A DNA stretch of 64,000 nucleotides from an uncultured Blastocatellaceae bacterium (GCA_964548225.1 CAZJQP010000005.1:20453-84452), one strand, 5' to 3'; positions 2,827 through 62,543 are shown, counted from the stretch's first letter. Notes: generated from the sequence alone by a model not told the origin. Made by a program: numbers and translations.

Positions 2827-2888
2827 CGAATCGGATCACGCTAAAAAATATCAAAAGGGGAAAACTCTTTAACAAATTCGCTTGGTTT

Positions 2889-4292
2889 TCATTTTATTCC
2901 GGTAAGTTTCCAAAGCTGTGCGGGGTCAGTGTCCGATGATTTGACCATTTCAACGACGTATCTGGAAAAAGTAACAGCTTCCAGAGATTTGCCGTCGCCG
3001 AGAGATTCGTTGGTCAAACGAAAATAATCTGCTCCGACCGGTGTCATTTTCCATCGTTGAGATGATGAAGCTCCCGATGCGGACATCATTACACGGTCTT
3101 TATTACTTGCATTGACATCTAACGCCTTGCCGTCTGCCGTCAGCGTATAAAAACCCGTTCCCAAATCGTTCAAATCCCATTGCCGATTGCCGGATTCACC
3201 CGATTTTACAATGAGCTTATCCTTGAATTCGCCGTCTTTGAGAGCCTGCAAAAATACTGTGTCGCCGTGTTGTTTATTGACGAGATAGAATCCCTGACCG
3301 GTTGGCGCGGAGATTTTTTTCCAAAGTTGTGCGTCGCCGTTTCCCGAATCTCTTATTCTCAAAAAATTATAATACTGCTTGGTGTATGAAAGCGATTTGC
3401 TATCACCGAGCCATTTATTGGTAATGCGGTAAAAATCGCCGCTGACATTCGTAATCGCCCAAAGTTGTCCGACATCTTTTGCCGATTGAGCCATTGAAAC
3501 GGACGAGTCCGAATTGTCGTCTATGACTTCGAGCGATTGGTTTTCGCCGAGTCCGCGATTAACGAAACGGTAAAAAGTTTTCTCGTTTGGATCGGGCGTA
3601 ATCTGCCATTTTTGAAAATTATTATCACTTGTTCCGACCATCAGAAAAGTTCTGTTTTGATTGTCGAACTCCAAAATGTTTTTCGAATCATTGGGTTTAT
3701 TGGTTAGAAAATAAGACTTGCTTGACTGCATCGGCGGGGCTAAAAAATAAACTGCAACGCCGCCGCCGATTAACAAAAGTAAAAGCAAAATTCCGCCGAT
3801 TTTGAAAACTTTCGATTTCTTTTTCGGTTCAATTTGTGCATTTGGCACGCTAAATATATCTTTCGGCGGATTATCGAATTTGGCGTTCGCCGGTTGATTT
3901 GAAGGTGGAACTATCGGCACAACGACTTGTGTTCGAGGTAAAGGAGTGTTTCCGCCGGTATTCGGCGCAGAGTAATGCTGTGTCGGCGGCACAGTTTTGT
4001 TTTCATTGGTATTCGGTGCAGAGTAATGTTGGGTCGGCGGCAAAGGTTTTTCCTGCGGGATATAAGCTGTTTGCGGCAATTCCGGTTGCGGTAATTCCGG
4101 CTTCGGCATTATCTGCGTCGGCTGTAATTCCGGTTTCGGCATCATTTGTGTCGCAAGTAATTCTTCGCGTTTCTTGATAACCGTTGCCACTTCATCAGAG
4201 TAATCATTAGAAGTTTCGGGAATTACAGTTCCGCATTCGGTGCAAAATGTATGTTTTGCATCATTTACAATGTTACAATTCGGACAAATCAT
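2889..4292 (-). CDS. Membrane protein: N-terminal zinc ribbon, Pro-rich repetitive linker, one TM helix, and a C-terminal region with five QxW motifs suggesting two ricin-B-like (beta-trefoil) lectin domains
   Basis: CPNC...CTEC zinc ribbon. TM GGILLLLLLIGGGVAVYF. QxW motifs QKWQIT, GQLWAIT, AQLWKKI, SQRWKMT, AQLWKLT. Confidence 0.6.
   Translation of the reverse strand: MICPNCNIVNDAKHTFCTECGTVIPETSNDYSDEVATVIKKREELLATQMMPKPELQPTQIMPKPELPQPELPQTAYIPQEKPLPPTQHYSAPNTNENKTVPPTQHYSAPNTGGNTPLPRTQVVVPIVPPSNQPANAKFDNPPKDIFSVPNAQIEPKKKSKVFKIGGILLLLLLIGGGVAVYFLAPPMQSSKSYFLTNKPNDSKNILEFDNQNRTFLMVGTSDNNFQKWQITPDPNEKTFYRFVNRGLGENQSLEVIDDNSDSSVSMAQSAKDVGQLWAITNVSGDFYRITNKWLGDSKSLSYTKQYYNFLRIRDSGNGDAQLWKKISAPTGQGFYLVNKQHGDTVFLQALKDGEFKDKLIVKSGESGNRQWDLNDLGTGFYTLTADGKALDVNASNKDRVMMSASGASSSQRWKMTPVGADYFRLTNESLGDGKSLEAVTFSRYVVEMVKSSDTDPAQLWKLTGIK
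3957..4059 (-). repeat. In-frame tandem duplication (about 51-bp unit x2) within the Pro-rich linker of the lectin-like protein (PPTQHYSAPNT x2). A second approximately 33-bp x2 repeat follows at about 4095-4160 (MPKPEL motif)
   Basis: ggtattcggcgcagagtaatgctgtgtcggcggcacag... repeated at a 51-bp offset with a few substitutions. Confidence 0.7.
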
Positions 4293-6765: not shown

Positions 6766-6852
6766 ATTTATATTTTCTTCGTTTTATTTTTAACTCACGT
6801 TACGCGGAGCGCAAATTTTCGATTTATCGCTTCCAACAACAAAAACCGGCAA

Positions 6853-7355
6853 ACTATCGGCAAAAAATATCCAACTATCGGCAAAAGTTGCTGAACTATC
6901 GGCAAAAACTGTGAAACTATCGGCAAAAACTGAGGAACTATCGGCAAAAGTTGCTGAATTATCGGCAAAGGTTGTCCAACTATTGGTAAAAGTTGCTGAA
7001 CTATCGCTGTAAGTTTGCTAACTGTCGCCTTAAGTTCACCAACTATCGCCGTAAATTCACTAACTTTCGCTATTAGTTCATCAACATTCGCCGTTAGTTT
7101 ATCAACTATCTCTGTAAGTTTCGGAACTTACAGCGATAGTTCACCAACTATCTCTGTAAGTTCACCAACTATCGCTGTAAGTTACTCAACTAACGCTGTA
7201 AGTTAATGAACTAACGCCGTAAGCTCATCAACATTCGCCGTTAGTTGGTGAACTATCGCTGTAAGTTGACGAACTATCGCTGTAAGTTGACGAATTAACG
7301 CTGTAAGTTGGTGAACTATCGCCGTTAGTTCACCAACTTACAGCGTTAATTTACT
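6853..7355. repeat. Non-coding array of about 24 tandem 21-bp repeats in two sub-families: about 7 units of CTATCGGCAAAAnnnnnnnAA, then about 17 units of CTATCGCTGTAAGTTnnnnAA, with one unit inverted
   Basis: Strict 21-bp periodicity counted directly. No spacers and no cas genes. The ORF-track peptides over it are repeat artefacts. Confidence 0.9.
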
Positions 7356-7592
7356 GCCGAACATTGAAAATAACTCAATAAACATAGGTATTTGACGAAC
7401 TTTCGCAAGTTTTAAGACCTTTTCCGCCCGACAACGCCGCAAATAATGCGAGATTTTACAGAAGAAACAGGAAAAAGAATAAAATACGCATCGCAAGCAA
7501 ATATTTTCGATTAACAAATTCGCAGAAATTCTCGTGAACTAAGCTAAAATTCCAAAATTGCGTAAGGTGAGTTTTAATTTAGTTTTCAAATA

Positions 7593-7643
7593 TTTTGAAT
7601 CTTGCCTTTAGACGGCTTTTCCGTATAAAGGCAAGATTCAAAA
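7593..7643 (-). terminator. Perfect 18-bp stem hairpin (TTTTGAATCTTGCCTTTA / TAAAGGCAAGATTCAAAA), 5 nt after the stop of the 7648-7953 gene
   Basis: Inverted repeat read directly. Weak U-tract only. Confidence 0.4.
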
Positions 7644-7647
7644 CATA

Positions 7648-7953
7648 TTAATTACAAGTTGTATCGTCAAGCAGAATTTCGCCTTGAACCCATTTTTTGC
7701 CGATTTTTGCTTTTACCAAGATAAGTCCTTGGTGCATATCTTTAATAGTCCACGAAAGCAAAGTTCCAGCCTTCAGCTTTATTGTTTTTTCAGTTGCCCG
7801 CACAAAAAAATTAGCATTATTTTTCTGAACTTTGCAGGTTTCAAAATTTCTTTCTGAAATCTCGTTGTTTTCTGCGCTCGTTATTTGAATAAAAACCATC
7901 GAAACCAAAATACAAACGGCTGTCGTTAGTCCGATAAAAAATTTATTTTTCAT
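7648..7953 (-). CDS. Small secreted hypothetical protein
   Basis: Signal peptide IGLTTAVCILVSMVFIQITSA. No known motif. Confidence 0.45.
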   Translation of the reverse strand: MKNKFFIGLTTAVCILVSMVFIQITSAENNEISERNFETCKVQKNNANFFVRATEKTIKLKAGTLLSWTIKDMHQGLILVKAKIGKKWVQGEILLDDTTCN

Positions 7954-8357
7954 TTTGTTTTCTCCTGTAGATTGGCGTAAAAGTCGCCTAAATCAAGGAA
8001 CAGACAAATTTGTCTCAACGGCAGTTATTTGTTTCCGTGATATTAATTTGCTTTGTTCACTACTTCATCCATCTAATCCTCATTGTTCTTTTAGATTTTC
8101 CTCCGCGAGAAATCTCAGCATCAGCTATTCTGTCTTCATTTTTATAAAAAACTACTTTTCTCGGCTTTCCATTTTTCTCCGGTTTTCGACGCTGTCCGCA
8201 TCTACTTCACTCCTCCATAAACTCGCTTCTTCCAAACTCGAATGCTTCTAAAAATCTCGCCAACGCATCAACGCGCCTGTTTCGATAATCTGCAAAATGC
8301 AGGATTGTTTGATACAAAGCAAATTGACGATTTGCTCTGCCGCCGTCACTCATATAA

Positions 8358-10223
8358 TTAGCGAATCGGTTCACGCAAAATAATTTCCGCCGTTTCACGC
8401 GCTAATTTTGCCGCCGCCGGATGCGTTTCGTTTAATTGCGCGACTTGTTTTAAGGCTTCGCCCGTGCGCGAGAGAAGCCGCACTAAATCACCTTCTTCCG
8501 CCTTTGTATAGAAAACCAAATCTTGCCAATCACCACCGCTCGCCCAAAATTCCGCCGCCGCCGCCGCCGAGAGATTTATTTCGTCCGCCGGAGCTACGCC
8601 CGCTTTGAATTCAACGCCGGAAACTTCGTAGATTATATTTTCAAATTCGGTCAGAATATCCAAAATTTTATCGGAAAGATGAAGTTCGCCGTAATTTCTA
8701 TCGGAATCGGCGGCAAGTGAAGCCATCAGTGCGGCAATATGTTTTGTTTCCAAATTTTCAAAAAGTCCGTGCCGCAGAGCTTCGCCGACAAGCAATGGTC
8801 GGTCAACGCGCACATCCGCGAGCCATTTGCCTTTTGCAGTAACTCTCTGCGCGGTAAAATCGAGATAACCGAAATGATTCAAAACCCGTGCGCGGCGTTC
8901 AAAAGGCAACCATATTTCGTTTCGTAAAATTTCTACATCACGCACCGTTTTTTCCAAAAATTCGGCATCTGAAACCGTTTCCCACAAAAGCTGATGTGCT
9001 TGTCTTTTGGCATCTTCGCTCAAATTTGCGGGTAGAAGTGTTTCAATTGCAGCAGTTAAAATCTCGACTGCTTCGTCCATATCGTCTTTGTTTGCAGAAA
9101 GTTTCGGTTCGCTCAAAGCCGGATTTTTGCCTTCGTGAATTTCGTCAAAAGCAAGGTCGAGCGAGCGTTCCTCCAAACGATATTCCTTTGCATAAACGCG
9201 CCCGATGTGCGGCAGAGAAAGCGTCGCGCCTTGTCCGTCTTCGCGCATTGCGACAACCTTTTCACCGAAAACATTCAGCACAAGAAAAAAGCGTTTCGAG
9301 TTGCGGCTTTTCGTAACGATTCTGCCGATTTGCACGTTTTCTCTGAGCCAATTCGTGCGAACTTCCGCCCGCGTATTCGGCAGTTTTTCCTGCAAACGTT
9401 GACGCGCATTTGCCAATCTCTCAAAACCTCGCACCGTGTCAATTGTCAAACCGAATTCGTTATTTTCGAGCTTCTTTACGATAGCTTTTCGACGCTTTTC
9501 TGTCTGCTTTTCAATCTGCGAAATTTGCTGCGCCGTTTCACGAAACGCAAAACTTTTTTCGGCGATTTCGCGCACCTGTGAGAAATTTCCGAAAGCGTCT
9601 AAAAGATTTAGCAAACTCGTGTAAGTTGCACGAAATTGACTGTTTAACGCATCGGGCGGCGATTTTAAAAGTTGTGCAATCTTTGGTGGATTTTGAAATT
9701 GTGCCGGAGCTAGAATAACAAAACCGACGTTATCTTTCCCACGCCGTCCGGCGCGTCCGGTCATTTGTTGCAATTCCGACGCTTGCAACGAACGCCAACC
9801 GTCATTTCCGCGTGTGTCGGCGTTTGAAATTACAACGGTTCGCGCCGGAAAATCAACTCCTGCCGCTACGGTCGAAGTCGCAAAAATCGCATTCAGCAAA
9901 CCTTTTGACATCATTTTTTCAATCAAAAGTTTCCAAGCCGGAATATGCCCTGCGTGATGCGCGGCAATTCCCGCACGAATCAGTATTTTCCGATGTTTAT
10001 GAGTTTTTATCTCAGGATTTTCCGCCAAATATTCTTCATAAATCTTCTGCCGTTCTTCCTGCTTGTCAATATCGGTTTTCTGTGATTTATCTGCGGCAAC
10101 TTCCGTCGCGGCTTCGTCGCACTTTCGGCGCGTCGGCATAAAAACAATCGCCGGCAAAAGGTTGAAATTTCTCAGCGCAGTAATTAATTTCGGCGGCGGA
10201 ATTTCGGGTAATTTGAATCTCAT
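8358..10223 (-). pseudogene. 5'-truncated Ski2-like / DEAD-DEAH superfamily-2 helicase: only RecA-like domain 2 and the C-terminal region are present; domain 1 with motifs I-III is absent
   Basis: Begins directly at the domain-2 linker (LLPAIVFMPTRRKCDE). Has motif V/VI-like TSTVAAGVDFP and QMTGRAGRRG but no GxGKT or DExH. Only 112 bp separate its start from the divergent sigma-factor gene. Confidence 0.5.
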
Positions 10224-10235
10224 CTAAAAATATTA

Positions 10236-10299
10236 AACCACGAAATAACGCGAAGAAACACTAAAAAAATCAATTTCTTTTCGTGCTAATTCGTGGTTT
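10236..10299. repeat. Hairpin repeat element E1 (AACCACGAAA...ACGCGAA...TTTTCGTG...TTCGTGGTTT), the left flank of the sigma/anti-sigma/CHAT module
   Basis: Homologous to 16214-16266 in the same orientation. It contains the inverted repeat AACCACGAA / TTCGTGGTT. Confidence 0.6.
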
Positions 10300-10335
10300 A
10301 ATATCTGATGTAAAATCTCTCGACCAAAAAAGGCG

Positions 10336-11166
10336 TTGATGCAAAAAACAAACACAGCGCAAGGCGTAACGGATACGGATTTGCTGAAGTTATTTCAAGA
10401 TAATCCGCAACACGCTTGGAGTTTGTTTTGCGATAAATATTCGGATTTTATTTATACAATTTTACGCCGTGCGGGGTTTGATTATGACGAGGCAATGGAG
10501 CGTTTCGTATATGTTTTTGAGAAACTGTGCGAACAAGATTTTCGCCGATTTAAGACGATAAAATATGTCGGAAACGACGGTGATTTAACACCTTGGTTGC
10601 GGCAGGTTCTGAAGAACTTATGCGTAAATTGGGCTTGGAGCGTGGACGGACGCAAACGGCTTTTCGGGTTTGTTGCGGAAATGCCGCCGCGTGAACAGAG
10701 AGTTTTCCAATTATATTTTTGGCAAGGAAACACGCCGTTTGAAATTTATGAAAATTTGCGGCTCGAACACGATAAAACGGTCGAAGTAGGCGATGTTTTT
10801 GATGCGTTGGAAACAATTTTTGCGCGTTTGAGTGAGAAAAAACTCTGGCGTTTGATGAGCAATTTGAATCGAATGCGAAAAACTCTTTCGCTCGATTTGG
10901 AAAACGAAGACAGCAATTTTTTTATCGAACCGATTGACGAAAACGCTCTTGACGCAGAAGAAAATTTGCTGAAAAAAGAATCTTTCGGGCAGTTAAAATT
11001 GGCGTTCGAAACGCTTTCGGCGCGGGAAAAACTAGTCGTTCAATTTCGCTATGAAGAAACGATGACGCTCGGCGAAATCGCCGAAATGCTCGGTTGGGAA
11101 GAGCGCGAAACAACGAACTTGCACAAATCGGCGATTTACAAATTGCGAAAATTTTTCGCCGTCTGA
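10336..11166 (+). CDS. ECF-type RNA polymerase sigma factor (sigma-70 family, regions 2 and 4) with an approximately 70-aa insert
   Basis: Region 2-like segment DTDLL...AWSLF...IYTILRR...DEAME. Region 4 HTH LSAREKLVVQFRYEETMTLGEIAEMLGWEERETTNLHKSAIYKLRK. Confidence 0.8.
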   Translation: MMQKTNTAQGVTDTDLLKLFQDNPQHAWSLFCDKYSDFIYTILRRAGFDYDEAMERFVYVFEKLCEQDFRRFKTIKYVGNDGDLTPWLRQVLKNLCVNWAWSVDGRKRLFGFVAEMPPREQRVFQLYFWQGNTPFEIYENLRLEHDKTVEVGDVFDALETIFARLSEKKLWRLMSNLNRMRKTLSLDLENEDSNFFIEPIDENALDAEENLLKKESFGQLKLAFETLSAREKLVVQFRYEETMTLGEIAEMLGWEERETTNLHKSAIYKLRKFFAV

Positions 11167-11224
11167 GTGGTTTTATATGTTTTGGAAAATTGGGTGAGGA
11201 AAGTAAAAGGTAAAAAGTAAAAAA

Positions 11225-11908
11225 ATGTCGGAAAAAAACTGTCCAACTCAAGATAATTTACGCGAATTTCTTGTGGGCGAAATGCCGCCGAGTGAAAAAG
11301 AAACGCTCGAACTGCATTTGGCGGATTGCGCGGATTGTCGGCAAAATTTGGTCGCGGTTTTTGTCGCAAAAGCGGAGGAAACCGAAACTTTCAAAACTCC
11401 GAAACCTTTGACCGAAACCATCAAAAATCTGCCTGCAAGCAAATCGAAAGCAAATTCCCTCTCTTTTTTTTCATTTGCGTGGCTCGGAAAATATCGTTTG
11501 CAGACGGCTTTTGCCGCCATTTTGCTTGTCTGTTTCGGGTTCGCCGGATTTTATTTTCTGCGAAATCAAACGACTTCAAATTCGGACGATGTTTTGCGAA
11601 ACGGCGCGGCAAACAAAGACTTAATTAAACTTCTTGCTCCTGAAGATAGTGTTGTTGTCAAAGGCTCTTTTGTTGAATTTGAATGGGAAAAAGTTTCGGA
11701 TGCAAGTTCTTACATTCTAATTATTTCCGATGAAAAAGGCGATATTATTTTTCAAGAGCAAACCAAACAAACCAAGTTCAATTTCGGACGGGCGTATCCA
11801 TCCAAAAGAGTAAATAAGCAAGACAAAAGTTTTTGGTATGTTCAGGCAAAACTTATTGACGGAAAAATTATAGAATCCACCCCGAGAAAGATTTTTTTTG
11901 AGTATTAA
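11225..11908 (+). CDS. Zinc-finger (ZAS / zf-HC2) anti-sigma factor with one TM helix and an extracytoplasmic C-terminal domain
   Basis: H-x3-C-x2-C motif (HLADCADCRQ) near the N-terminus. TM AFAAILLVCFGFAGFYFL. Lies immediately downstream of the ECF sigma gene. Confidence 0.75.
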   Translation: MSEKNCPTQDNLREFLVGEMPPSEKETLELHLADCADCRQNLVAVFVAKAEETETFKTPKPLTETIKNLPASKSKANSLSFFSFAWLGKYRLQTAFAAILLVCFGFAGFYFLRNQTTSNSDDVLRNGAANKDLIKLLAPEDSVVVKGSFVEFEWEKVSDASSYILIISDEKGDIIFQEQTKQTKFNFGRAYPSKRVNKQDKSFWYVQAKLIDGKIIESTPRKIFFEY

Positions 11909-11913
11909 AGTTA

Positions 11914-14688
11914 GTGAAAAACTCAGCCTCTAAATATTTTTGGCTGTTTTGTTGTTTAGCAACTTTAGCGGTGGCGGGATATTTTTCCGCCCCATTTATA
12001 GGTGAAAAACTCTATCAAAAAGGCTTACAAGCAAAAAAAGAGTGGCAATTGACATCTGCCATCAGCTATTTTTTGTGGGCGGAGAAATTAAATTCGGATA
12101 AAACAAAAGTCCGAATTGAAAAAGCCGTTTGTTTTCAGATGCTTGGGGAATTTATAAAATCTCAAACCGAATTTGAAAAACTTCTCGCCGAATCCGTCGT
12201 AAATCAAAAATTACATTCTCGAATTTTAAATGCCAACGGAGTCAATCTGTTCAGCCAAAATTTGCCTGACAAGGCTTTGGAAAGTCATCAGGAAGCCTTA
12301 AAAATTGCCCGTTTGATTGGCGATAAAAAACTCGAAGCGCAAATTTTAGTTAATTTAAGCCGTGTTCTTTATCACGCCAAAGGAAAATTTGATGAAGCCG
12401 AAAAACATCTCGAAAACGCTTTGCAAATCGGGCGTGAACTGAATGACGAACAAATTATTGCCGATTCAATGCGAAATCTCGGCGTGGTTTTGTGGTGGGG
12501 AAAAGGCGAATTAGACCGTCCGCTGAATGATTTTTACAAACCTGCGCTCGAACTTTACCGCAAAAATCAAGACAAACGCGGCGAAGCGACGATGCTCAGC
12601 AATATTAGCTTAATTTATTCGTTCAAAGGTGATTTTTACGAATATCTGAAACTGCAAAATGAAAGTCTGCAAATCCGTGAAAACATCAAAGACCAAGCCG
12701 GATTGAGCGAATCTTACAGGGCTTTCGGTGCGGCATATTTATCAGTCAGAAATATCAAAAAAGCGCGTGAATATCTGCAAAAATCGGTTGCGCTTTCGGA
12801 AAAAATCGGCTTTCGGCTGACGCAAAACGAAGCCGAAACTTATTTGGCAGGCGTTTATGCCGAACTCGGCGAACACGATGAAGCCATTGAACTTTTTCAA
12901 AAAATTTATGAGCGCGAGAAAAACAGTCCCGAACTTGCCAAAAACCGTTTAAGCTCAATCGGATATTGCTATTTACTCAAAGAGGAATTTGAAAATGCCC
13001 GCCAAATTTTTGAGCAAGTTTTGGAAATGGAACTCAAAAACGAGAGAAAAGATATTCGAACCTTGTTGGCGATTTATGTTTTTTTGGGCGAAACTTTTAT
13101 GCGTTTGGGGCAAACGGAAAAAGCAAAAGAGGTTTTGCAAAAAGCCGAAAATCTTTACAAAGAGCAACGAGGCGAAATAATTCAAGGGCTTTTGAGTTAT
13201 GCCGCAACACAAGCCGAATTTGCGTTTGAACAAAAAGATACGGAAAAATCACGCCGTTTTTTACGCGAAGCCGCCGAAAATGAATTGAGTCTTTTTGCCC
13301 TGAGCGGCACAAATTTGATTACTCATCCGCTTGCACGAGATTATGACCGAATTTTCTTACTTTTGCTTGAAAAATTGGATGATACGAAACTTGCTTTTCG
13401 TTTTTTGGAACAACGCCGGTATCGTTCATTCCGCAATTTTATTGTGCAATCGAGTAGTAAAAATAACACTTCCGCGCAAACGGGCAACGGCGAAAAAAAA
13501 GCTCTGGCGGAGATTGAAAAATTGAAAAACCATTCAAAAAATAACGACGGCGTAGAACTCAAAGAAAGACTCCAAAAGGCTTACGGCGATTATGAAAATG
13601 CGGTTTTGAAAGAGCAATTTTCCAAAGAAATTCAGAAAGCGATTACCACCGCGCAACCCGTTGACTTAAACACGGCGGGACAAAATCTGGACGAAAAAAC
13701 GGCTTTGATTGAATATGTTTTTGCGGGCGAAAAAGTTTTTGCGATAGTGTTGACAAAAAATGATTTACGGCATTTTTTATTACCTGTTTCGCGCTCGAAT
13801 TTGCGGAATAAAACACGACTTCTGAATGCTTCGATTTTTGCCAAAATCGAATCTGACGATTGGCAACCGATTGCCCGAAGTTTGCGCGAGAATTTGCTTG
13901 AACCGCTTGAAAAATCGGACGTTTTGAAAGATAAAAATCGTCTGGCGATTGTGCCTTTCGGCGTTTTGCACGATTTACCGTTTGCCGTCCTGATAAGCAA
14001 TGAAAATCGTTTTTTGATTGAAGATTACACTTTGTTTTTTCCGCTGTCGGCAACATTTCTGCAAAGAAAAAATTCCCATTCCGGGACAAAAAAAATGGTT
14101 AGTTTCGGCATCAATCACACGGAAAATTTGCCAGATTTGAAGTTTGCGGTTGAAGAATCAAAAGCGGTGGCAGAAATCTTCGCGGGCGAAGCAAAAGTTG
14201 AAACGCAAGCAACCGAAACCGAATTCAAAAACTCCATCTCAAAAACCACGCATCTGCATCTGGCAACCCACGCTGTTGCCGAAGCGGAAATGCCTCTTTT
14301 TTCAAGACTTCTCTTAAAATCCGCCGAAAAAGATGACGGAAATTTGATGGGGCGCGAGATTTTTGAAATTGGAATCGAGACGGATTTGGTAACTATTGCG
14401 GCTTGCGAAGGTGCGAAAAGTTTTTCCGCTGACTCGGAAGATTTAATCGAAATTGACCGCATCGGGCTAACCGAAGCCTTTCTCCACGCCGGTTCAAACA
14501 GTGTTTTAGCTAGTCTTGCACCAATCAGCGATGCCGCAACCGTTGAATTTATGAAGGATTTTTACATAAATCTCAAAGAAAAAGACAAAACCGAATCTCT
14601 TGCACAATCTCAACGAAAAATGCTTCACGGGAAATTCAAACATCCGCGTTTTTGGTCGCCGTTTATTTTGGTTGGCTCTGATAAGTAA
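11914..14688 (+). CDS. TPR-repeat plus CHAT-domain (caspase-like peptidase) protein with an N-terminal signal-anchor
   Basis: Many TPR units (e.g. ALESHQEALKIARLIGDKKLEAQILVNLSRVLYHAKGKFDEAEKHLENALQIGREL). C-terminal CHAT signature His (HLHLATHAV) and Cys (LVTIAACEGA). Its start is 6 nt after the anti-sigma stop. Confidence 0.8.
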   Translation: MKNSASKYFWLFCCLATLAVAGYFSAPFIGEKLYQKGLQAKKEWQLTSAISYFLWAEKLNSDKTKVRIEKAVCFQMLGEFIKSQTEFEKLLAESVVNQKLHSRILNANGVNLFSQNLPDKALESHQEALKIARLIGDKKLEAQILVNLSRVLYHAKGKFDEAEKHLENALQIGRELNDEQIIADSMRNLGVVLWWGKGELDRPLNDFYKPALELYRKNQDKRGEATMLSNISLIYSFKGDFYEYLKLQNESLQIRENIKDQAGLSESYRAFGAAYLSVRNIKKAREYLQKSVALSEKIGFRLTQNEAETYLAGVYAELGEHDEAIELFQKIYEREKNSPELAKNRLSSIGYCYLLKEEFENARQIFEQVLEMELKNERKDIRTLLAIYVFLGETFMRLGQTEKAKEVLQKAENLYKEQRGEIIQGLLSYAATQAEFAFEQKDTEKSRRFLREAAENELSLFALSGTNLITHPLARDYDRIFLLLLEKLDDTKLAFRFLEQRRYRSFRNFIVQSSSKNNTSAQTGNGEKKALAEIEKLKNHSKNNDGVELKERLQKAYGDYENAVLKEQFSKEIQKAITTAQPVDLNTAGQNLDEKTALIEYVFAGEKVFAIVLTKNDLRHFLLPVSRSNLRNKTRLLNASIFAKIESDDWQPIARSLRENLLEPLEKSDVLKDKNRLAIVPFGVLHDLPFAVLISNENRFLIEDYTLFFPLSATFLQRKNSHSGTKKMVSFGINHTENLPDLKFAVEESKAVAEIFAGEAKVETQATETEFKNSISKTTHLHLATHAVAEAEMPLFSRLLLKSAEKDDGNLMGREIFEIGIETDLVTIAACEGAKSFSADSEDLIEIDRIGLTEAFLHAGSNSVLASLAPISDAATVEFMKDFYINLKEKDKTESLAQSQRKMLHGKFKHPRFWSPFILVGSDK

Positions 14689-14690
14689 AG

Positions 14691-14727
14691 TTCAGATTTG
14701 CCTCTTTAGGCATAACTCTGAACTTTT
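14691..14727 (+). terminator. REP-like element copy B (GTTCAGAtTT...AACTCTGAAC) followed by TTTTTTT; likely terminator of the CHAT gene
   Basis: Imperfect member of the GTTCAGAGTT/AACTCTGAAC hairpin family. Followed by a T-run. Confidence 0.55.
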
Positions 14728-14788
14728 TTTCGTCAAATTCTCCAAACTTGAAAAATTGTCTGTTGGGTAAAATTCGGAGGAGAATTTT

Positions 14789-15145
14789 ATGAACAAAAAA
14801 TCTATCAGCATTGTTTTATTGGTTGGTCTGTTGGTTTTGGCGTTTACGCCCATCAATGTTTTGGCGGGAACGGCTTCGGCTTCGGCGACGGCAAAAGCGG
14901 GTGACGATTGCGGGGAAATCGAAAAACGCGAAGGGCAAAACACCGGCGCAATGAACATCGGAATGGTCAAGGTCAATGGCAAAGAGTTGAAAAAAGGAAT
15001 TGATTACACAGTTGAAAACGACGGCAGCACACGACCGAAAATTAAATTCAAAACGCCTTTGGCAAAAGATGATTCAGTAAGCGTTACGTTGTCAACCGTA
15101 AAAAGAGGCGATTTTACGGTAAATCTGACTTTGAGCAATTGTTGA
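14789..15145 (+). CDS. Small secreted hypothetical protein
   Basis: Signal peptide SIVLLVGLLVLAFTPINVLAG. RBS-like ggaggag upstream. Confidence 0.5.
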   Translation: MNKKSISIVLLVGLLVLAFTPINVLAGTASASATAKAGDDCGEIEKREGQNTGAMNIGMVKVNGKELKKGIDYTVENDGSTRPKIKFKTPLAKDDSVSVTLSTVKRGDFTVNLTLSNC

Positions 15146-15537
15146 TGGAGAACGCAAGAATGAAAAATTCTAGTTTTATGAAAAAAGTCTATGTTTTAAT
15201 AACGGCGTTTTCTTTTATCGTAGCTTTTTCGGCGTTTGATTTGCTCGCGCAAAAAAGCAATACGAAACGATATGTCCTGCTCAAACGAAACGAGCGGAAA
15301 AACAGTTACAAAACCGTTTCGGAAAATGGCGAAATCATTTTTGAAGCCGAGAATGTGGAAGACCCAAAAGATGGCGAACTTCTTCGCGGCAAGAAAAAAT
15401 TGGAATATCGCTGTGAACTAGGTCAAATTCCATTTATTAAAGAATTGCTTTTTTCAAACGGGCGTTCCACTCGGCAAAAAGTCGAGTGTCTGGTGCTGAT
15501 TACGCCGCGAATTATTATTCAGGAAGAGGAAAATTAA
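15139..15537 (+). CDS. Small secreted hypothetical protein (start may be an internal Met)
   Basis: Signal peptide VYVLITAFSFIVAFSAFDLLAQ. Overlaps the previous gene by 7 nt. Confidence 0.45.
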   Translation: MLMENARMKNSSFMKKVYVLITAFSFIVAFSAFDLLAQKSNTKRYVLLKRNERKNSYKTVSENGEIIFEAENVEDPKDGELLRGKKKLEYRCELGQIPFIKELLFSNGRSTRQKVECLVLITPRIIIQEEEN

Positions 15538-15550
15538 GGAGAAAACATTT

Positions 15551-16180
15551 ATGCCGAATGAAACATTTGAGGAACGGGTTCGCAATCGTATTAAGGAACT
15601 GACGGATTATTACATCCAAAATCAAGATTTGATTCGCGCTCCTTTGTTTCGCCGTTTTTGCAATCCTGTCCGATGGGAAACCGAGTGGCGCGAACTTTAT
15701 CGGGTAATTGAAGAATATGAAAAATATGACGGCGAGATGGGCAATCGTTTAATAAAAGTCGAAGGTTTTAATTATCAGCCTTTGCCTTGGACACCGTTTT
15801 TGCAACAATACGAAAAAAACGCGCTTGAAAAACTCATTTCCAAACGGTGCAATTCGCACGAACGGCAAATTATCGCCAACGACATCAAATACGAAATGAA
15901 TCGGCGAATAAATCGCGTTCCAAACGCCAAGCGCACCGCCGCTAATCTTCAAAAAGCCGGACAACGCGGCGAAGAAGAAGGACTTTTGAACGCCTTCGGT
16001 GTCGAGTATCGCGGCGAATATGATCTTGCGCTCACCGAAGCTGACCGCCAATGGCACAAAAGCGGAATCGAATATTTTGTCGAATTTGCAATTATCGAAT
16101 GCGGCATAATTGACGTTGACGCAATAAAAAGAGAAGAAACCCGCAAGGTTAAACCGAAACTTTCCGGTTGGGGAATGTAA
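15551..16180 (+). CDS. Hypothetical cytoplasmic protein
   Basis: Long ORF with an RBS (aggagaaaac). No recognised motif. Confidence 0.5.
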   Translation: MPNETFEERVRNRIKELTDYYIQNQDLIRAPLFRRFCNPVRWETEWRELYRVIEEYEKYDGEMGNRLIKVEGFNYQPLPWTPFLQQYEKNALEKLISKRCNSHERQIIANDIKYEMNRRINRVPNAKRTAANLQKAGQRGEEEGLLNAFGVEYRGEYDLALTEADRQWHKSGIEYFVEFAIIECGIIDVDAIKREETRKVKPKLSGWGM

Positions 16181-16213
16181 TCCGCGATTGCGTGAATAAA
16201 TACGGATAATTTT

Positions 16214-16266
16214 AACCACGAAAAGACGCGAAACGAATTGCTTCTTTTCGTGTCTTTTCGTGGTTT
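16214..16266. repeat. Hairpin repeat element E2 (AACCACGAAAAGACGCGAA...TTTTCGTGTCTTTTCGTGGTTT), the right flank of the module; a 17-bp stem with one mismatch
   Basis: Homologous to E1 at 10236-10299. Probable terminator of the 15551-16180 gene. Confidence 0.6.
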
Positions 16267-16282
16267 CTGGTATATTCAAACA

Positions 16283-16663
16283 ATGAATCAGACCCTTGTC
16301 CTTTGGCATCAATTTGTCGCATCGCCGAACGCCGAAATTCTGCACGAAATTCTCGCGGACGACGTGCAATTTCACTCGCCTTTTATCTGGAAACCGAAAG
16401 ACGGAAAAGCCGTAACGACGCATATTTTAATGACCGTTACGCAGGTTTTCGAGAACTTCCGCTATATCCGCGAAATCATTGAAGAAAATAATTTTTGCCT
16501 CGAATTTGAAGCCAGCATCGGCGATTTGACACTTCGCGGCGTTGATTTGATTTCGCTAAATGATGACGGAAAAATTATTGATTTTGAAGTAATGATTCGT
16601 CCCGCAAATGCTCTGCAAACGCTCGGAATAGAAATGGGCAAGCGTTTGAATTTACAAGGTTAA
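16283..16663 (+). CDS. NTF2/SnoaL-like small protein (start taken at MNQTL)
   Basis: About 125 aa with a pattern consistent with the alpha+beta cone fold. Weak call. Confidence 0.4.
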   Translation: MNQTLVLWHQFVASPNAEILHEILADDVQFHSPFIWKPKDGKAVTTHILMTVTQVFENFRYIREIIEENNFCLEFEASIGDLTLRGVDLISLNDDGKIIDFEVMIRPANALQTLGIEMGKRLNLQG

Positions 16664-16755: not shown

Positions 16756-17421
16756 ATGCTTAAAGATACAACGTCAGTTACAACAATTAATGCGTTTCCG
16801 TTTGCCGGAAGTTTTTCGACCGTCAAGTCTGTCGAAAAAGTTGCCGAAGCCCGTTTGCCAACCGAATTTGGCGAATTTCGTATTGCGGGTTACAAATCTC
16901 TAACAAGCGATGAAGAATTTGTCTGTGTTTTCAAAGGCGATTTGCACGAAAACGCCGCAATTCCCGTGCGTATTCATTCGCAATGTTTGACGGGCGACGT
17001 TTTTCACTCGACAAAATGCGATTGCGGAGCGCAACTGCAAAGCGCGATGGAAACCATCGAAAAAGAAGGTCGCGGCGTAATCGTCTATCAACATCAAGAA
17101 GGTCGCGGCATTGGAATCATTAACAAAATTCGTGCTTACGCCCTGCAAGATAAAGGCGCGGACACCATCGAAGCAAATCTGCGACTCGGACTCGATGTTG
17201 ATTTGCGCGAATACGACCAATGCGTCGAAATCCTGAAAGATTTGGGTGTGCGTAAAGTCAAAGCATTATCAAATAATCCCGACAAACTCCGCGCAATGCG
17301 AAACGGCGGTTTGGAAATCATCGAGCGCGTCCCGATTGAATTCGAACCATCAAAAGACACGCAAAAATATTTGAGTGTCAAGAAATTTCAGATGGGACAT
17401 CTTTTGAGTTTAGTGAATTAA
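16756..17421 (+). CDS. ribA: GTP cyclohydrolase II (riboflavin biosynthesis)
   Basis: [23 protein letters not shown] zinc-binding Cys motif and [27 protein letters not shown]. Confidence 0.9.
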
Positions 17422-17472
17422 ATTTTCCTCCTCAAAAAAACTAAAAGATGCGGTATTGATTTATCGCATCTT

Positions 17473-18876
17473 TTAGTTCTTTAAAGCATTCAAAATCTTC
17501 TCGTGAATACCGCCGAAACCGCCGTTTGACATTACGGCAACGACATCGTTTTCGCGCAATTCGGGTGCGAGATGGGCGACAATCGAATCGGCATCGGGCA
17601 AGCAGAAAGCCGTCTTTCCTTGCGCGTTGATTTGTTCGACTAACTCCTCGACATTCAAAACTTTGCCCAATTCCGATGCTTTTTGCGTGTTATAAACTCC
17701 GGCGATGATGACGTAATCGGCGTATTCAAAAGCGTTGCGGTAAGGTTCTTGAAAAACCGCCAGCCGCGACGACCACGAACGCGGCTCAAAAACCGCAATC
17801 AAACGCTTGCCCGCATATTTCATCCGCAGAGCTTTCAAAGTTTCTTCAACGGCGGTCGGATGATGCGCGAAATCGTCAATCACCGTAACGCCGCGTTCGA
17901 TTCCGCGAATTTCGACGCGCCTTTTCACCGATTTGAATGTATCAAACGCTTCTTGAATTTTGTCTTGAGAAATTCCCCAAGCGTCCGCCGCGATGATGAC
18001 GGCAAGACAATTTCGCACGTTAAATTCGCCGATTAAATCGGTTTCAAATTCGCCCCAAAATTCGTTTTCGCGGAAGATTTTAAATTTTGTTCTGCCCGAA
18101 AAATCAATCTCACGCGCTTGCCATTTTGCCTCGTCCGAAGTTCCGAAAGTTTCAATGTTTGTAAAAAGTTTGCCGCGCATTTCTTCCAAAACTTCTTTCG
18201 CAACAGGCGAATCAATGCCGACAATTAACGAGCCGTTTGACGGCACAAGATTCATCAGACGCGAAAACTGATATTTGATTTCCCAAAGGTCGCGGTAAAT
18301 GTCAGCGTGGTCAAATTCGACGTTATTGACAATCGCAATTTCGGGCAAATAGTGCATAAATTTCGGCTTTTTATCAAAATAAGCCGTGTCGTATTCGTCG
18401 CCTTCAATGACGAAATAATCGCTTTCCGCCACACGAAACGACGCGCCGAAATTCTGCACAATTCCCCCAACCAAAAACGACGGATTCAGCCCACCAACCT
18501 CGCAAACCCAACTCGCAATACTCGTCGTCGTCGTCTTCCCGTGCGTTCCCGCAACGACCAGCGAACGCCGTCCGCGAATAAATTCTTCCTTAACAATCTC
18601 CGCCTGCGAACGATACAAAAGTTTGCGATTCAAAACCTCTTCAAGCTCCGCATTTCCACGCGAAATCGCATTTCCGACAATCGTGCAATCCGCGCCGATG
18701 TCCGCATTTTCCGCTTTGTAACCGTTCAAAATCTCAATCCCAAGTTGTTCCAACTGCGTTGACATCGGCGGATAAACATTCTGGTCTGAACCCGTAACTT
18801 TGTGTCCGCGCGTCTGCAACATTCCCGCCAACGAAGCCATCGCCGTTCCGCAAATTCCGATTAAGTGATAGTGCAT
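17473..18876 (-). CDS. mpl: UDP-N-acetylmuramate:L-alanyl-gamma-D-glutamyl-meso-diaminopimelate ligase (Mpl, Mur ligase family)
   Basis: N-terminus HLIGICGTAMASLAGML...GHKVTGSDQNVYPPMSTQLE closely resembles E. coli Mpl. Mur ligase ATP-binding GTHGKTTTT. Confidence 0.8.
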   Translation of the reverse strand: MHYHLIGICGTAMASLAGMLQTRGHKVTGSDQNVYPPMSTQLEQLGIEILNGYKAENADIGADCTIVGNAISRGNAELEEVLNRKLLYRSQAEIVKEEFIRGRRSLVVAGTHGKTTTTSIASWVCEVGGLNPSFLVGGIVQNFGASFRVAESDYFVIEGDEYDTAYFDKKPKFMHYLPEIAIVNNVEFDHADIYRDLWEIKYQFSRLMNLVPSNGSLIVGIDSPVAKEVLEEMRGKLFTNIETFGTSDEAKWQAREIDFSGRTKFKIFRENEFWGEFETDLIGEFNVRNCLAVIIAADAWGISQDKIQEAFDTFKSVKRRVEIRGIERGVTVIDDFAHHPTAVEETLKALRMKYAGKRLIAVFEPRSWSSRLAVFQEPYRNAFEYADYVIIAGVYNTQKASELGKVLNVEELVEQINAQGKTAFCLPDADSIVAHLAPELRENDVVAVMSNGGFGGIHEKILNALKN

Positions 18877-24716: not shown

Positions 24717-24789
24717 AAGGCAGAAACCCGTGTGTGAGCAAGAATGTTTAAGTGAAAGTTCTGCCTCCTTGCTCACACGCGAGTTTCTG
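24717..24789. promoter_or_regulatory. 23-bp-arm imperfect palindrome (GCAGAAACCCGTGTGTGAGCAAG / CTTGCTCACACGCGAGTTTCTGC) in the divergent ALDH-lrp promoter region; candidate operator
   Basis: Read directly; 2 mismatches in 23 bp. Centred between the two start codons. Confidence 0.4.
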
Positions 24790-24855
24790 CTTTACAAAAT
24801 TTTGCTTGACAAACCAATTACCGAATATTATTCTTTAAATAGTGAGGTTGACCGA

Positions 24856-39590: not shown

Positions 39591-39598
39591 CGCAATTT

Positions 39599-39673
39599 GA
39601 TGGACAAAGAATAAGGGACGAGTGAGTAAAAGACAAATTTTACTTATCCCTCGTCCCTTATTTCTTGTCCATC
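39599..39673. terminator. Long hairpin (about 24-bp stem TGATGGACAAAGAATAAGGGACGAG / CTCGTCCCTTATTTCTTGTCCATCA) between the convergent M43 protease and esterase genes
   Basis: Read directly. The loop holds a nested GTAAAAG/CTTTTAC hairpin. Confidence 0.55.
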
Positions 39674-39682
39674 ATCCCTTAA

Positions 39683-40351: not shown

Positions 40352-40524
40352 AAATCTAAGAGAACTTAACCAAGATTATTGTAAAGTAAATTCGTAAATT
40401 TTACATTTTTCCAGCCTTTTTTAGTTTTACTGCTTCCGAAATCAGAACAAAGAGCCGTAACGAATTGTCTGGTGCGGGGCATTTCCCAATTCGCTACTGT
40501 TCTTTGTTCCGATTTTCTTCAGCT

Positions 40525-41359: not shown

Positions 41360-41426
41360 CCTGCGAAACACGAGAAAGACGCTAAAAAATTCAATAAATT
41401 TTCGCGTCTTTCTCGTGTTTCGCAGG
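41360..41426. terminator. Perfect 23-bp stem hairpin (CCTGCGAAACACGAGAAAGACGC-21 nt loop-GCGTCTTTCTCGTGTTTCGCAGG) flanked by T/A runs, between the S46 peptidase gene and the next gene
   Basis: Read directly. Plus-strand T-run after the stem. Its role as the minus-strand terminator is ambiguous. Confidence 0.45.
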
Positions 41427-44754: not shown

Positions 44755-44843
44755 TATCACTTTTCACCTATCACCTATCACTTATTCCGAAAAGTAAAGC
44801 AATTTCTTCCGAAATAAGTGATAGGTGATAGGTGAAAAGTGAT
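44755..44843. promoter_or_regulatory. Perfect 32-bp-arm inverted repeat (TATCACTTTTCACCTATCACCTATCACTTATT ... AATAAGTGATAGGTGATAGGTGAAAAGTGATA) with a 25-nt loop in the divergent aminotransferase/P450 intergenic region
   Basis: Read directly. The arm itself is built from CTATCAC/TTTTCAC sub-repeats. Confidence 0.55.
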
Positions 44844-44873
44844 ATTTGCGCGTTTCGAGAAACGCGCAAATAT
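44842..44873. promoter_or_regulatory. Second perfect palindrome ATATTTGCGCGTTTC-GAG-AAACGCGCAAATAT immediately adjacent to the large inverted repeat
   Basis: Read directly. 14-bp stem. Confidence 0.5.
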
Positions 44874-62447: not shown

Positions 62448-62543
62448 GAAGGGGAGAAATTTTTGTTGATAAACTTGAAAGTAAAAATAACACTCAAGTT
62501 TATTAACAAAAAAAAATCTCCCCTTCTCACTTTCCCGCTTTCT
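62431..62543. terminator. Large near-perfect inverted repeat (about 30-bp arms AGAAAGCGAGAAAGTGAGAAGGGGAGAAATTTT / AAAAATCTCCCCTTCTCACTTTCCCGCTTTCT) with a nested hairpin in the loop, between convergent genes; the left arm overlaps the last codons of the AI-2E gene
   Basis: Read directly. A/T runs at the stem ends in both directions. Confidence 0.6.

Follow-up and report, generated by a model that had tools for sequence, protein, structure and literature searches.

In Myxococcus xanthus, DdvA combines within one protein a zinc-binding anti-sigma (ZAS) domain, a transmembrane (TM) helix and a periplasmic TPR-CHAT region, and sequesters DdvS, a sigma factor of the extracytoplasmic function (ECF) type (PMC11506125). 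Its authors propose that a signal induces autoproteolysis by the CHAT domain, as the site-1 cleavage, followed by cleavage by RseP, and they found DdvA-like proteins in Myxococcota and in one Comamonas only (PMC11506125). In craspase, the TPR-CHAT protease Csx29 cleaves Csx30, and an RpoE-type sigma factor is released (PMC10028731). TPR-CHAT proteases are abundant in bacteria, and are understood just in craspase and, structurally, in DdvA. Here we describe a gene block that encodes a sigma factor, a membrane-anchored anti-sigma factor and a TPR-CHAT protein on separate polypeptides. It lies in a 64,000-nt stretch of DNA (the window) from an uncultured Blastocatellaceae bacterium (GCA_964548225.1 CAZJQP010000005.1:20453-84452); coordinates are counted from the first letter of the window, and comparison loci from other genomes and metagenomes are numbered L001–L150.

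The block (10339–16180) consists of six genes, all on the + strand according to an open reading frame (ORF) map and domain scans, in the co-directional order of sigma factor, anti-sigma factor, TPR-CHAT protein and three small genes that a first-pass annotation had described. The anti-sigma factor and the CHAT protein match the two ends of the single DdvA, and the block is therefore a natural split version of DdvS/DdvA, a variant that is real, conserved and previously undescribed. We regard it as probable that the block represents a family-level signalling module of the Pyrinomonadaceae (Acidobacteriota), soil Acidobacteria.

The anti-sigma factor and the TPR-CHAT protein match the two ends of DdvA

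The second gene (11225–11908, + strand) encodes a single-pass, zinc-binding anti-sigma factor of 227 residues, as judged from a zf-HC2 match, a TM segment, an alignment of 18 sequences and its match in PDB. Its N-terminal domain carries a zinc-binding arrangement of the DdvA type (CHCC/HxxxCxxC), comprising Cys6 and H31xxxC35xxC38, and is followed by the TM segment (residues 91–114), a juxtamembrane D-V-L-R125-N segment, and, at residues 140–227, a C-terminal domain that is conserved and about 85 residues long. In the alignment of 18 orthologs, C6, H31, C35 and C38 are conserved and Arg125 is invariant. Among PDB entries, the N-terminal domain of DdvA matches best (8rlz_A, E=0.0035, and 8rot_B), with RsiW in third place. 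The protein presumably holds the sigma factor at the membrane.

The gene for the N-terminally membrane-anchored, caspase-like TPR-CHAT protein (924 residues; 11914–14688, + strand) follows after a gap of 5 nt, where the first-pass annotation had given a spacing of 6 nt. It contains a CHAT domain (PF12770, E=2.5e-54), TPR matches and a TM helix (residues 8–30). The dyad of a clan CD caspase-like CHAT protease, His786 and Cys831, is invariant in a set of 12 orthologs and again in a set of 25 orthologs. The AlphaFold2 (AF2) model (predicted local distance difference test, pLDDT, 85.8; predicted template-modelling score, pTM, 0.81) shows the combination of TPR superhelix and CHAT domain with a His/Cys dyad that characterizes DdvA, separase and craspase. 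In accordance with this fold, Foldseek places DdvA first (8rot_A, E=1.5e-14), then craspase Csx29 (7y8t_B and 7y9x_B) and separase, and DdvA is also the sole CHAT-domain match in PDB of the TPR-CHAT sequence profile.

None of 24 orthologous CHAT clusters carries a zf-HC2 domain, so the split between protease and anti-sigma factor is constant. An N-terminal TM helix is present in every examined TPR-CHAT ortholog whose N-terminus is not truncated, and the family-wide net charge of the flanks of this helix is about +52 on the N-terminal side vs +23 on the C-terminal side, which favours an N-in/C-out orientation; the TPR-CHAT region is probably periplasmic.

A three-domain sigma factor

The first gene (10339–11166, + strand) encodes an alternative sigma factor of 275 residues, in which sigma2, a sigma3-like middle domain and sigma4 are recognized from Pfam (Sigma70_r4), TIGR02937, an AF2 model and Foldseek. 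The Pfam match is to region 4 alone, with no match to Sigma70_r2. The superfamily model TIGR02937 is the one model passed (71.7 bits), with FliA/WhiG as the most similar subfamily; all ECF subfamily models that match the protein do so under their cut-offs. The top PDB match by sequence is WhiG (6pfj). In the AF2 model (pLDDT 77), a sigma2-like bundle (residues 12–103) is followed by a helical middle domain (110–183) and sigma4 (206–274), and the Foldseek matches of this model are headed by SigB, FliA, SigA and WhiG, as full-length, three-domain matches, with RpoE in 26th place.

The first-pass annotation had called this protein an ECF sigma factor. Because both fold and sequence match three-domain sigma factors, RpoE coming just 26th, the protein is not a canonical ECF factor and is instead FliA/WhiG/SigB-like, with an extra helical middle domain; group-4 ECF factors consist of sigma2 and sigma4 only, in about 170–200 residues. 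The family is small and distinct (93 clusters of 270–315 residues, 35–100% identity). We note that the term CHAT does not occur in the main text of the ECF classification paper.

The three genes stay together across rearranged neighbourhoods

The genes for sigma factor, anti-sigma factor and CHAT protein are found in several genomic neighbourhoods: the triad adjoins kptA in L126 and L127 and follows a two-component pair in L128. In these loci and in 20 metagenomic loci, the three genes are adjacent wherever the contig permits, with L142 as the single exception. The most distant sigma relative with genomic context (43% identity) belongs to L150 (GCA_029263395.1, JAJCXO010000095.1; 5123–9625), where the order is permuted to TPR-CHAT, sigma factor, anti-sigma factor, such that the anti-sigma and CHAT genes are not adjacent. 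The linkage survives rearrangement, which argues that the three proteins work together. The conserved unit is this triad, and not any given output gene. The divergent upstream gene in L150 encodes a 1040-residue FG-GAP/SdrD_B/CarboxypepD_reg protein.

A motif that travels with the sigma factor

The CHAT stop codon is followed by a terminator-like hairpin (14687–14732, + strand; fold −17.3 kcal/mol, z −6.2, then TTTTTTT), an equivalent of which follows the CHAT gene in L126. Beyond it lies the candidate sigma-dependent promoter P2 (14739–14765, + strand), TCTCC-N15-GTCTGTTG, upstream of the gene for the 118-residue protein. This pattern occurs once in the window, with 0 copies expected by chance, and once each in L004, L126 and L127, every time before the gene for the 118-residue protein. 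The terminator-like hairpin stands between the CHAT gene and the motif, and the block is therefore probably divided into at least two transcription units; the sequence does not bear out a single operon spanning 10336–16180, a possibility that the first-pass annotation had raised for checking.

The core of the motif, TGTCTGTTG, read on the coding strand, is also located 3′ of the CHAT gene in L128, L132, L133, L136, L137, L140, L144 and L145, where the next gene differs; L144 and L145 carry the variant TGTCTGTTC. In nine more distant loci, an exact TGTCTGTT(G) is found in the spacer between the sigma and anti-sigma genes, 7–27 nt before the anti-sigma start, and at the matching position the window has a degenerate copy of the family motif, TATATGTTTTGG (11174–11185, + strand). 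In L149 and L150 the motif TGTCTGTTG precedes the sigma gene by about 60 nt, which in L150 places it within the 3′ end of the CHAT gene. As a control, unrelated loci totalling 898 kb were found to contain the 8-mer only 12 times. Since TGTCTGTTG travels with the sigma gene through rearranged contexts, it is likely to be the cognate promoter of this sigma factor. In the simplest reading, it would be a −10-like element of the sigma factor's own promoters, one for feedback on the anti-sigma and CHAT genes and another for the output genes.

A near-copy of the motif, TTTGTCTGTTC, is present on the other side of the helicase gene described below (7998–8009, − strand), about 45 nt upstream of a 101-codon ORF (7648–7953, − strand) whose product has a signal-like N-terminus. 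This near-copy could be an additional site at which the sigma factor acts, or a match by chance, with about one 8-mer match expected per 64 kb.

Genes downstream of the motif

The three small genes comprise two for secreted proteins and one for a cytoplasmic protein, as first described: signal-like N-termini are present in the 118-residue and the roughly 125-residue proteins, and the 209-residue protein has no TM segment. The first gene after P2 (14789–15145, + strand) encodes the secreted 118-residue protein S118, which has orthologs in L004 (83%), L126 (60%) and L127 and no family match above threshold. It is followed by the gene for S125, a secreted protein of about 125 residues (15160–15537, + strand) with a signal-like segment and orthologs in L004, L126 and L127; the ORF opens at 15139, and the start at 15160 was placed from the ribosome-binding site and a deletion junction. 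The gene for the 209-residue protein (15551–16180, + strand) is a lineage-specific passenger, present in the window and L004 (83%) only and absent from the other module loci. Profile searches with the three small proteins, which the first-pass annotation had proposed, gave no significant family for any of them, with a weak similarity of the S125 C-terminus to the end of secretins (E=1e-4) that stays under the family cut-off.

Across loci, the genes after the motif encode the 118-residue protein, a repeat protein of about 480–506 residues with a faint SBBP match, and the roughly 125-residue protein with the weak secretin-end similarity. The motif in L128 and L140 is followed instead by a gene for a reprolysin/FG-GAP protein of about 950 residues. 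Signal-like N-termini were found in the products of the downstream genes inspected. The window lineage has undergone a clean deletion of a gene for a 478-residue secreted repeat protein (faint SBBP beta-propeller) that is kept in L004, L126 and L127. At the junction (window 15142–15183, corresponding to L004 3683–5162), the ribosome-binding site and first codons (MKN) of the lost gene are fused to the gene for S125.

Mosaic divergence of the sensor parts

The window and its relative L004 are unevenly similar along the module. Protein identity is 88% for the neighbouring helicase, 86% for the sigma factor and 83% each for S118 and the 209-residue protein, vs 63% for the CHAT domain, 55% for residues 1–125 of the anti-sigma factor, 45% for the TPR region and 38% for the anti-sigma C-terminal domain, and nucleotide similarity collapses over 11645–13857. 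In addition, the trees of the CHAT protein and the sigma factor disagree: the window CHAT is nearer to that of L127 (58%) than to that of L004 (49%), and for the sigma factors the relation is reversed (66% vs 86%). This pattern suggests that the sensor segment was replaced by recombination (allele replacement), or that it evolves much faster than its flanks, or under diversifying selection. The periplasmic domain of the anti-sigma factor and the TPR region change together, which fits either an interaction between them or a shared variable ligand.

Proposed mechanism and its alternatives

The first-pass annotation had suggested a regulated-proteolysis signalling unit, and this is also our best reading of the module. 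A signal would be sensed by the fast-diverging surfaces, i.e., the C-terminal periplasmic domain of the anti-sigma factor and the TPR superhelix, and would activate the His786/Cys831 dyad. The CHAT domain would then cut the anti-sigma factor at its periplasmic juxtamembrane segment, with the conserved L-R125 as the candidate site, after which a presumed site-2 protease and cytoplasmic proteases would remove the remaining anti-sigma factor. The freed sigma factor would transcribe from TGTCTGTTG promoters, one providing feedback on the anti-sigma and CHAT genes and one serving the genes for secreted proteins. We favour, with some confidence, CHAT-dependent cleavage of the anti-sigma factor as the step that releases the sigma factor in this split version of DdvS/DdvA. 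More tentatively, the stand-alone, membrane-anchored and caspase-like TPR-CHAT protein of the periplasm may serve, in trans, as both a site-1 protease and a sensor dedicated to a zinc-containing anti-sigma factor, which in turn sequesters a three-domain, non-ECF sigma factor.

Several observations weigh against this proposal. Cleavage of the anti-sigma moiety by CHAT is a proposal for DdvA as well, and the parallel to DdvS is incomplete in that the sigma factor of the module is not of the ECF class. The TPR-CHAT protein of the window itself ties under the positive-inside rule, with equal numbers of Lys/Arg before and after its TM helix. The window's own lineage has a degenerate motif (TATCTGTTT or TATATGTTT) before the anti-sigma gene, and no sharply defined −35 element is seen at the motif. 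Finally, the output proteins are without recognizable function, no significant family being returned by Pfam, NCBIfam or PADLOC.

A doubtful but serious alternative is that the TPR-CHAT protein does not cleave the anti-sigma factor at all, and either binds its periplasmic domain as a co-sensor or shield, the cut being made by another site-1 protease, or has different substrates, such as the secreted proteins encoded alongside. In favour of this alternative, TPR domains serve as scaffolds for protein binding, the TPR region diverges together with the anti-sigma C-terminal domain, the bulky TPR-CHAT region of DdvA blocks RseP, with dyad mutants showing no phenotype in unperturbed cells (PMC11506125), and genes for secreted proteins stand next to that for TPR-CHAT. 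However, the dyad and the surrounding CHAT motifs are invariant over 36–94% identity, which argues for catalysis, and it is the triad that is conserved, not any particular output gene.

It is unlikely that the module senses viruses or competitors and thereby turns on a regulon for defence, in the way that DdvS/DdvA does for CBASS and CRISPR, with the local secreted proteins as a partial output. The relationship to DdvA points in this direction, as does the recurrence of protease/anti-sigma/sigma triads in CRISPR-linked signalling, and the mosaic, fast divergence of the sensor parts and the accessory status of the module (see below) may, in our own view, be of the kind often seen in immune sensors. 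Nevertheless, PADLOC gave just a generic TPR model for the module proteins, the neighbouring genes are housekeeping or unrelated ones (MurC, GTP cyclohydrolase II, GDPD, a kinase) with neither CBASS nor CRISPR among them, and the outputs at other loci are secreted beta-propeller-like or reprolysin/FG-GAP proteins.

A cytoplasmic TPR-CHAT protein, tethered by its N-terminal helix and cleaving the cytoplasmic linker of the anti-sigma factor or the sigma factor itself in a craspase-like manner, would accommodate the charge tie in the window protein and the cytoplasmic location of craspase and separase, its next structural relatives, but is improbable given the family-wide charge balance, the periplasmic location in DdvA, the closest relative, and the fact that the co-diverging partner domain of the anti-sigma factor is the extracytoplasmic one.

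If the proposed cleavage of the anti-sigma factor by TPR-CHAT holds, a receptor whose biotic ligand varies (phage, competitor or prey) should have swapped or fast-evolving sensing surfaces of this kind, and the placement of protease and substrate on separate polypeptides would make the proposed DdvA mechanism of CHAT as a site-1 protease directly testable. A split version, in another phylum and with another class of sigma factor, broadens the known caspase-like control of transcription and offers a simpler two-protein system, for which the co-travelling TGTCTGTTG is a ready reporter handle of sigma activity.

Presence and absence of the module next to a split helicase gene

To the left of the module, on the − strand, lies the gene for the RecA2 and DSHCT half of a split Ski2/HelY-like helicase (8358–10223; 621 residues, Helicase_C and DSHCT), and to the right the gene for a SnoaL-like protein of 126 residues (16283–16663, + strand). 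In the ancestral arrangement, this gene and the helicase gene are divergent neighbours, and the SnoaL-like protein is 68% identical to the product of the gene found next to the helicase in L001. The SnoaL-like gene also neighbours the helicase gene in L005, and is found beyond the module in L004. In the module-free loci L001 and L005 (helicase 78% and 85% identical to that of the window), the spacer between the two genes measures 106 and 192 nt, respectively; in the window a module of about 6 kb sits precisely between their start codons, and in L004 (helicase 88%) the module occupies the same place together with one additional gene. The module is thus an accessory one here: some genomes carry it between the helicase and SnoaL-like genes and others do not. 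The first-pass annotation had viewed it as a discrete cassette, inserted between hairpins at the expense of the helicase gene; its accessory nature is confirmed, and the hairpin-bounded insertion and the damage to the helicase are not.

The wider region is prone to insertion and deletion: in the window and L004, a gene for GTP cyclohydrolase II separates the SnoaL-like gene from murC, and it is missing there in L005. This second indel site, the spacer between the SnoaL-like gene and murC, corresponds to window 16756–17421 and 17435–17482, L004 490–2053 (with an additional gene for a 250-residue protein) and L005 9323–9430, and hairpins are located at the junctions there too.

The helicase ORF was correctly described as missing ATPase domain 1, in that Helicase_C and DSHCT are found and DEAD/RecA1 is not. 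Among 5.8 billion proteins searched, more than 120 clusters share 72–100% identity with it, nearly all of exactly 621 residues and with the same Helicase_C and DSHCT domains; the top 120 clusters span 593–653 residues, and those with a named source are annotated as Pyrinomonadaceae or Acidobacteria. Synteny with related genomes, a comparison that had been suggested, yielded the module-free relatives, and their helicase is the same short form rather than an intact two-domain enzyme (621 residues in L005 and L001; 628 residues in L003, at 72% identity). The 621-residue form is conserved with or without the module, and the helicase therefore did not lose its 5′ half to it. In L001 and L002, a separate gene for a 293-residue ResIII/DEAD protein lies just upstream, with an opposite-strand gene for a 125-residue SnoaL-like protein in between (in L001, the DEAD/ResIII gene is at 8571–9452 and the helicase gene at 10001–11866), and in other genomes the two halves are not neighbours; no DEAD half was found in the window or in the flanks of L003–L005. 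The Pyrinomonadaceae helicase is thus a stably split, intact gene and not a pseudogene: a truncation specific to this genome was rejected, as relatives have the same 621-residue form and L001 has a separate DEAD gene. A Hachiman-type defence helicase was likewise rejected, the HamB matches reflecting generic similarity among superfamily 2 (SF2) helicases and the surrounding genes, in the window as in relatives, being housekeeping or unrelated ones.

Hairpins at the module borders

Two hairpins, E1 (10236–10299) in the divergent spacer between the helicase and sigma genes and E2 (16214–16266) between the genes for the 209-residue and SnoaL-like proteins, were described in the first-pass annotation, and the sequences quoted there are present and fold strongly, with stems of 20–25 bp and z-scores of −7.6 to −8.7 against shuffled sequences on either strand. 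Their left arms share 17 of 19 bases, and the two hairpins are the sole exact AACCACGAAA sites in the 64 kb. Both are near-perfect palindromes, so the direct orientation ascribed to them has no meaning, and the G·U asymmetry of E1 is reversed in its ortholog. E1 is a resident intergenic hairpin: the module-free loci L001 and L005 have a hairpin at the same position, ending 11 nt before the helicase ATG. E2 is of a generic CACGAAA type, and its ortholog in L004 has three units per arm.

Such hairpins are not confined to module borders. Of the window's 33 intergenic gaps that measure 45 nt or more, 14 contain a strong hairpin (z ≤ −4), in convergent, divergent and tandem contexts. CACGAAA-type hairpins occupy unrelated spacers at window 41360–41426, L004 1276–1329, L005 9345–9421 and L001 344–408, the one in L004 beginning with AAACCACGAAA, a third copy of AAACCACGAAA; none was found at the module borders in L126–L128. 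When 185,579 species genomes were scanned with AACCACGAAWNNRCRCGAA, at least 120 stretches matched, and those listed belong to Verrucomicrobiota, Planctomycetota, Lentisphaerae, Acidobacteriota, Proteobacteria and further phyla; by our own estimate, a few hundred matches are expected by chance in the DNA scanned. Among the scorable matches listed, 102 of 147 (69%) extend into a third 10-nt unit beyond the pattern (consensus AACCACGAATGGACACGAATnGACACGAAT), and in about one-third of the matches listed an inverted partner lies at most 140 nt away; the matches are depleted from long ORFs. With the same type of hairpin at unrelated sites in the window, its relatives and at least 120 stretches from many phyla, E1 and E2 do not act as brackets or boundaries of the module, as the first-pass annotation had proposed; hairpins at many unrelated sites are an outcome that this annotation had itself named as refuting its proposal. 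They are generic intergenic hairpins, uninformative on the origin of the module.

The proposal that a cassette entered by insertion or recombination between copies of E1 and E2, destroying the 5′ half of the helicase gene, is thus very hard to sustain: the shared left-arm bases and sole AACCACGAAA sites, the absence of the module at exactly this site from L005 and L001, where a single hairpin occupies the spacer, and the way in which E1 and E2 each abut a flanking gene like the single hairpin of L001 would all agree with it, but the helicase is conserved at 621 residues, hairpins of the same type are widespread, E1 is positionally orthologous to a pre-existing hairpin, L126–L128 lack such borders, the module encodes no integrase or transposase, and comparison with the empty site reveals no target duplication other than the hairpins themselves. 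The probability that recombination at a hairpin assisted the arrival of the module at this site is low. These genomes normally have long intergenic hairpins and a 'headless' helicase, neither of which should be taken as an insertion scar.

The E1/E2 hairpins are like repetitive extragenic palindromic (REP) sequences and bacterial interspersed mosaic elements (BIMEs), and like CACGAAT repeats that flank TIGR04256 genes, in being intergenic palindromes with sub-repeats of about 10-nt period, and they share the AACCACGAA terminus with elements in many phyla. Unlike the CACGAAT repeats, the Pyrinomonadaceae copies use CACGAAA units and evolve fast at orthologous sites. No gene like those for REP-associated tyrosine transposases (RAYTs) and no GxxExxY gene was found in the window. 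At gathering thresholds, Rfam assigned no family anywhere in the window; miRNA-like hairpin matches to E1, obtained at permissive thresholds only, are meaningless and were rejected.

The cross-phylum inverted repeats (L006–L125; consensus AACCACGAATGGACACGAATnGACACGAAT) have arms of three 10-nt units each and occur as bare hairpins or as pairs 50–415 nt apart that resemble miniature inverted-repeat transposable elements (MITEs), for example at L027 314–747, L106 1123–1590, L076 39–617, L025 about 2838–3412 and L056 about 3648–4087. At five loci from five lineages, the repeats flank a gene for a TIGR04256 'GxxExxY' (PD-(D/E)XK-like) protein of about 127 residues, whose N-terminus, PRMDTNxHE, is encoded by the repeat arm. 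These GxxExxY genes (five loci) were the only ones to recur near the cross-phylum hairpins, with no recurrent transposase. The repeat family that flanks them could be an undescribed selfish element; 'GxxExxY' has few full-text mentions in the literature and none in a title or abstract, and literature and plasmid searches with the CACGAAT consensus gave nothing useful.

Stable long hairpins elsewhere in the window include those at 7585–7651, 17435–17482, 24717–24793, 39598–39674, 40439–40515, 41360–41426, 44755–44844 and 62431–62543. Some window hairpins lie in divergent promoter regions, where a terminator would have no purpose, and the arms of several seem to be built of short sub-repeats (CACCTAT, GAGAAAG, CGNGAAA), each hairpin having its own unit. 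Positions 6840–7338, inside an 882-nt gap without a long ORF, hold a non-coding tandem array in which a 21-nt unit (AACTATCGCTGTAAGTTCACC-like) is repeated about 24 times, and internal inversions of the array create several long hairpins.

Comparison with known systems

The closest described system is DdvS/DdvA (PDB 8rot, 8rw5 and 8rlz; PMC11506125, PMC6061681), with DdvA as the top PDB match for both the anti-sigma factor and the CHAT protein of the window. The two systems have in common a zinc-binding CHCC/HxxxCxxC module for sigma binding, a single TM segment, a TPR superhelix and CHAT domain of about 900 residues with a His/Cys dyad, a sigma gene directly upstream, and downstream genes for uncharacterized or secreted proteins, although identity between the TPR-CHAT model and the two DdvA entries amounts to just 12–13% over the Foldseek alignments. 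Unlike in DdvA, the anti-sigma factor (227 residues, with its own small periplasmic domain) and the TPR-CHAT protein (924 residues, with its own TM helix) are separate, as they are in 24 of 24 ortholog clusters. In addition, the sigma factor is three-domain and FliA/WhiG/SigB-like instead of ECF, the host belongs to the Acidobacteriota, and neither CBASS nor CRISPR is found in the module or among its neighbours.

Craspase (type III-E Cas7-11 with the TPR-CHAT protein Csx29; PMC10028731) likewise ties a TPR-CHAT protease to the release of a sigma factor, and its protease is the second-best structural match of the window protein (7y8t_B, 7y9x_B). Craspase, however, is cytoplasmic, RNA-guided and CRISPR-associated, whereas the window protein is membrane-anchored and has neither Cas7-11 nor CRISPR nearby.

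In the classical cascades of regulated intramembrane proteolysis, RseA/DegS/RseP and RsiW/PrsW/RasP, the anti-sigma factor is, as here, a single-pass protein that binds the sigma factor through a cytoplasmic domain and has an extracytoplasmic domain on the other side of the membrane, and in these cascades as in the module, removal of the extracytoplasmic domain would license site-2 cleavage. The difference lies in the first protease, which in the classical cascades is a serine protease or metalloprotease encoded elsewhere, whereas the site-1 candidate of the module is a clan CD, caspase-like CHAT protein encoded in the same operon.

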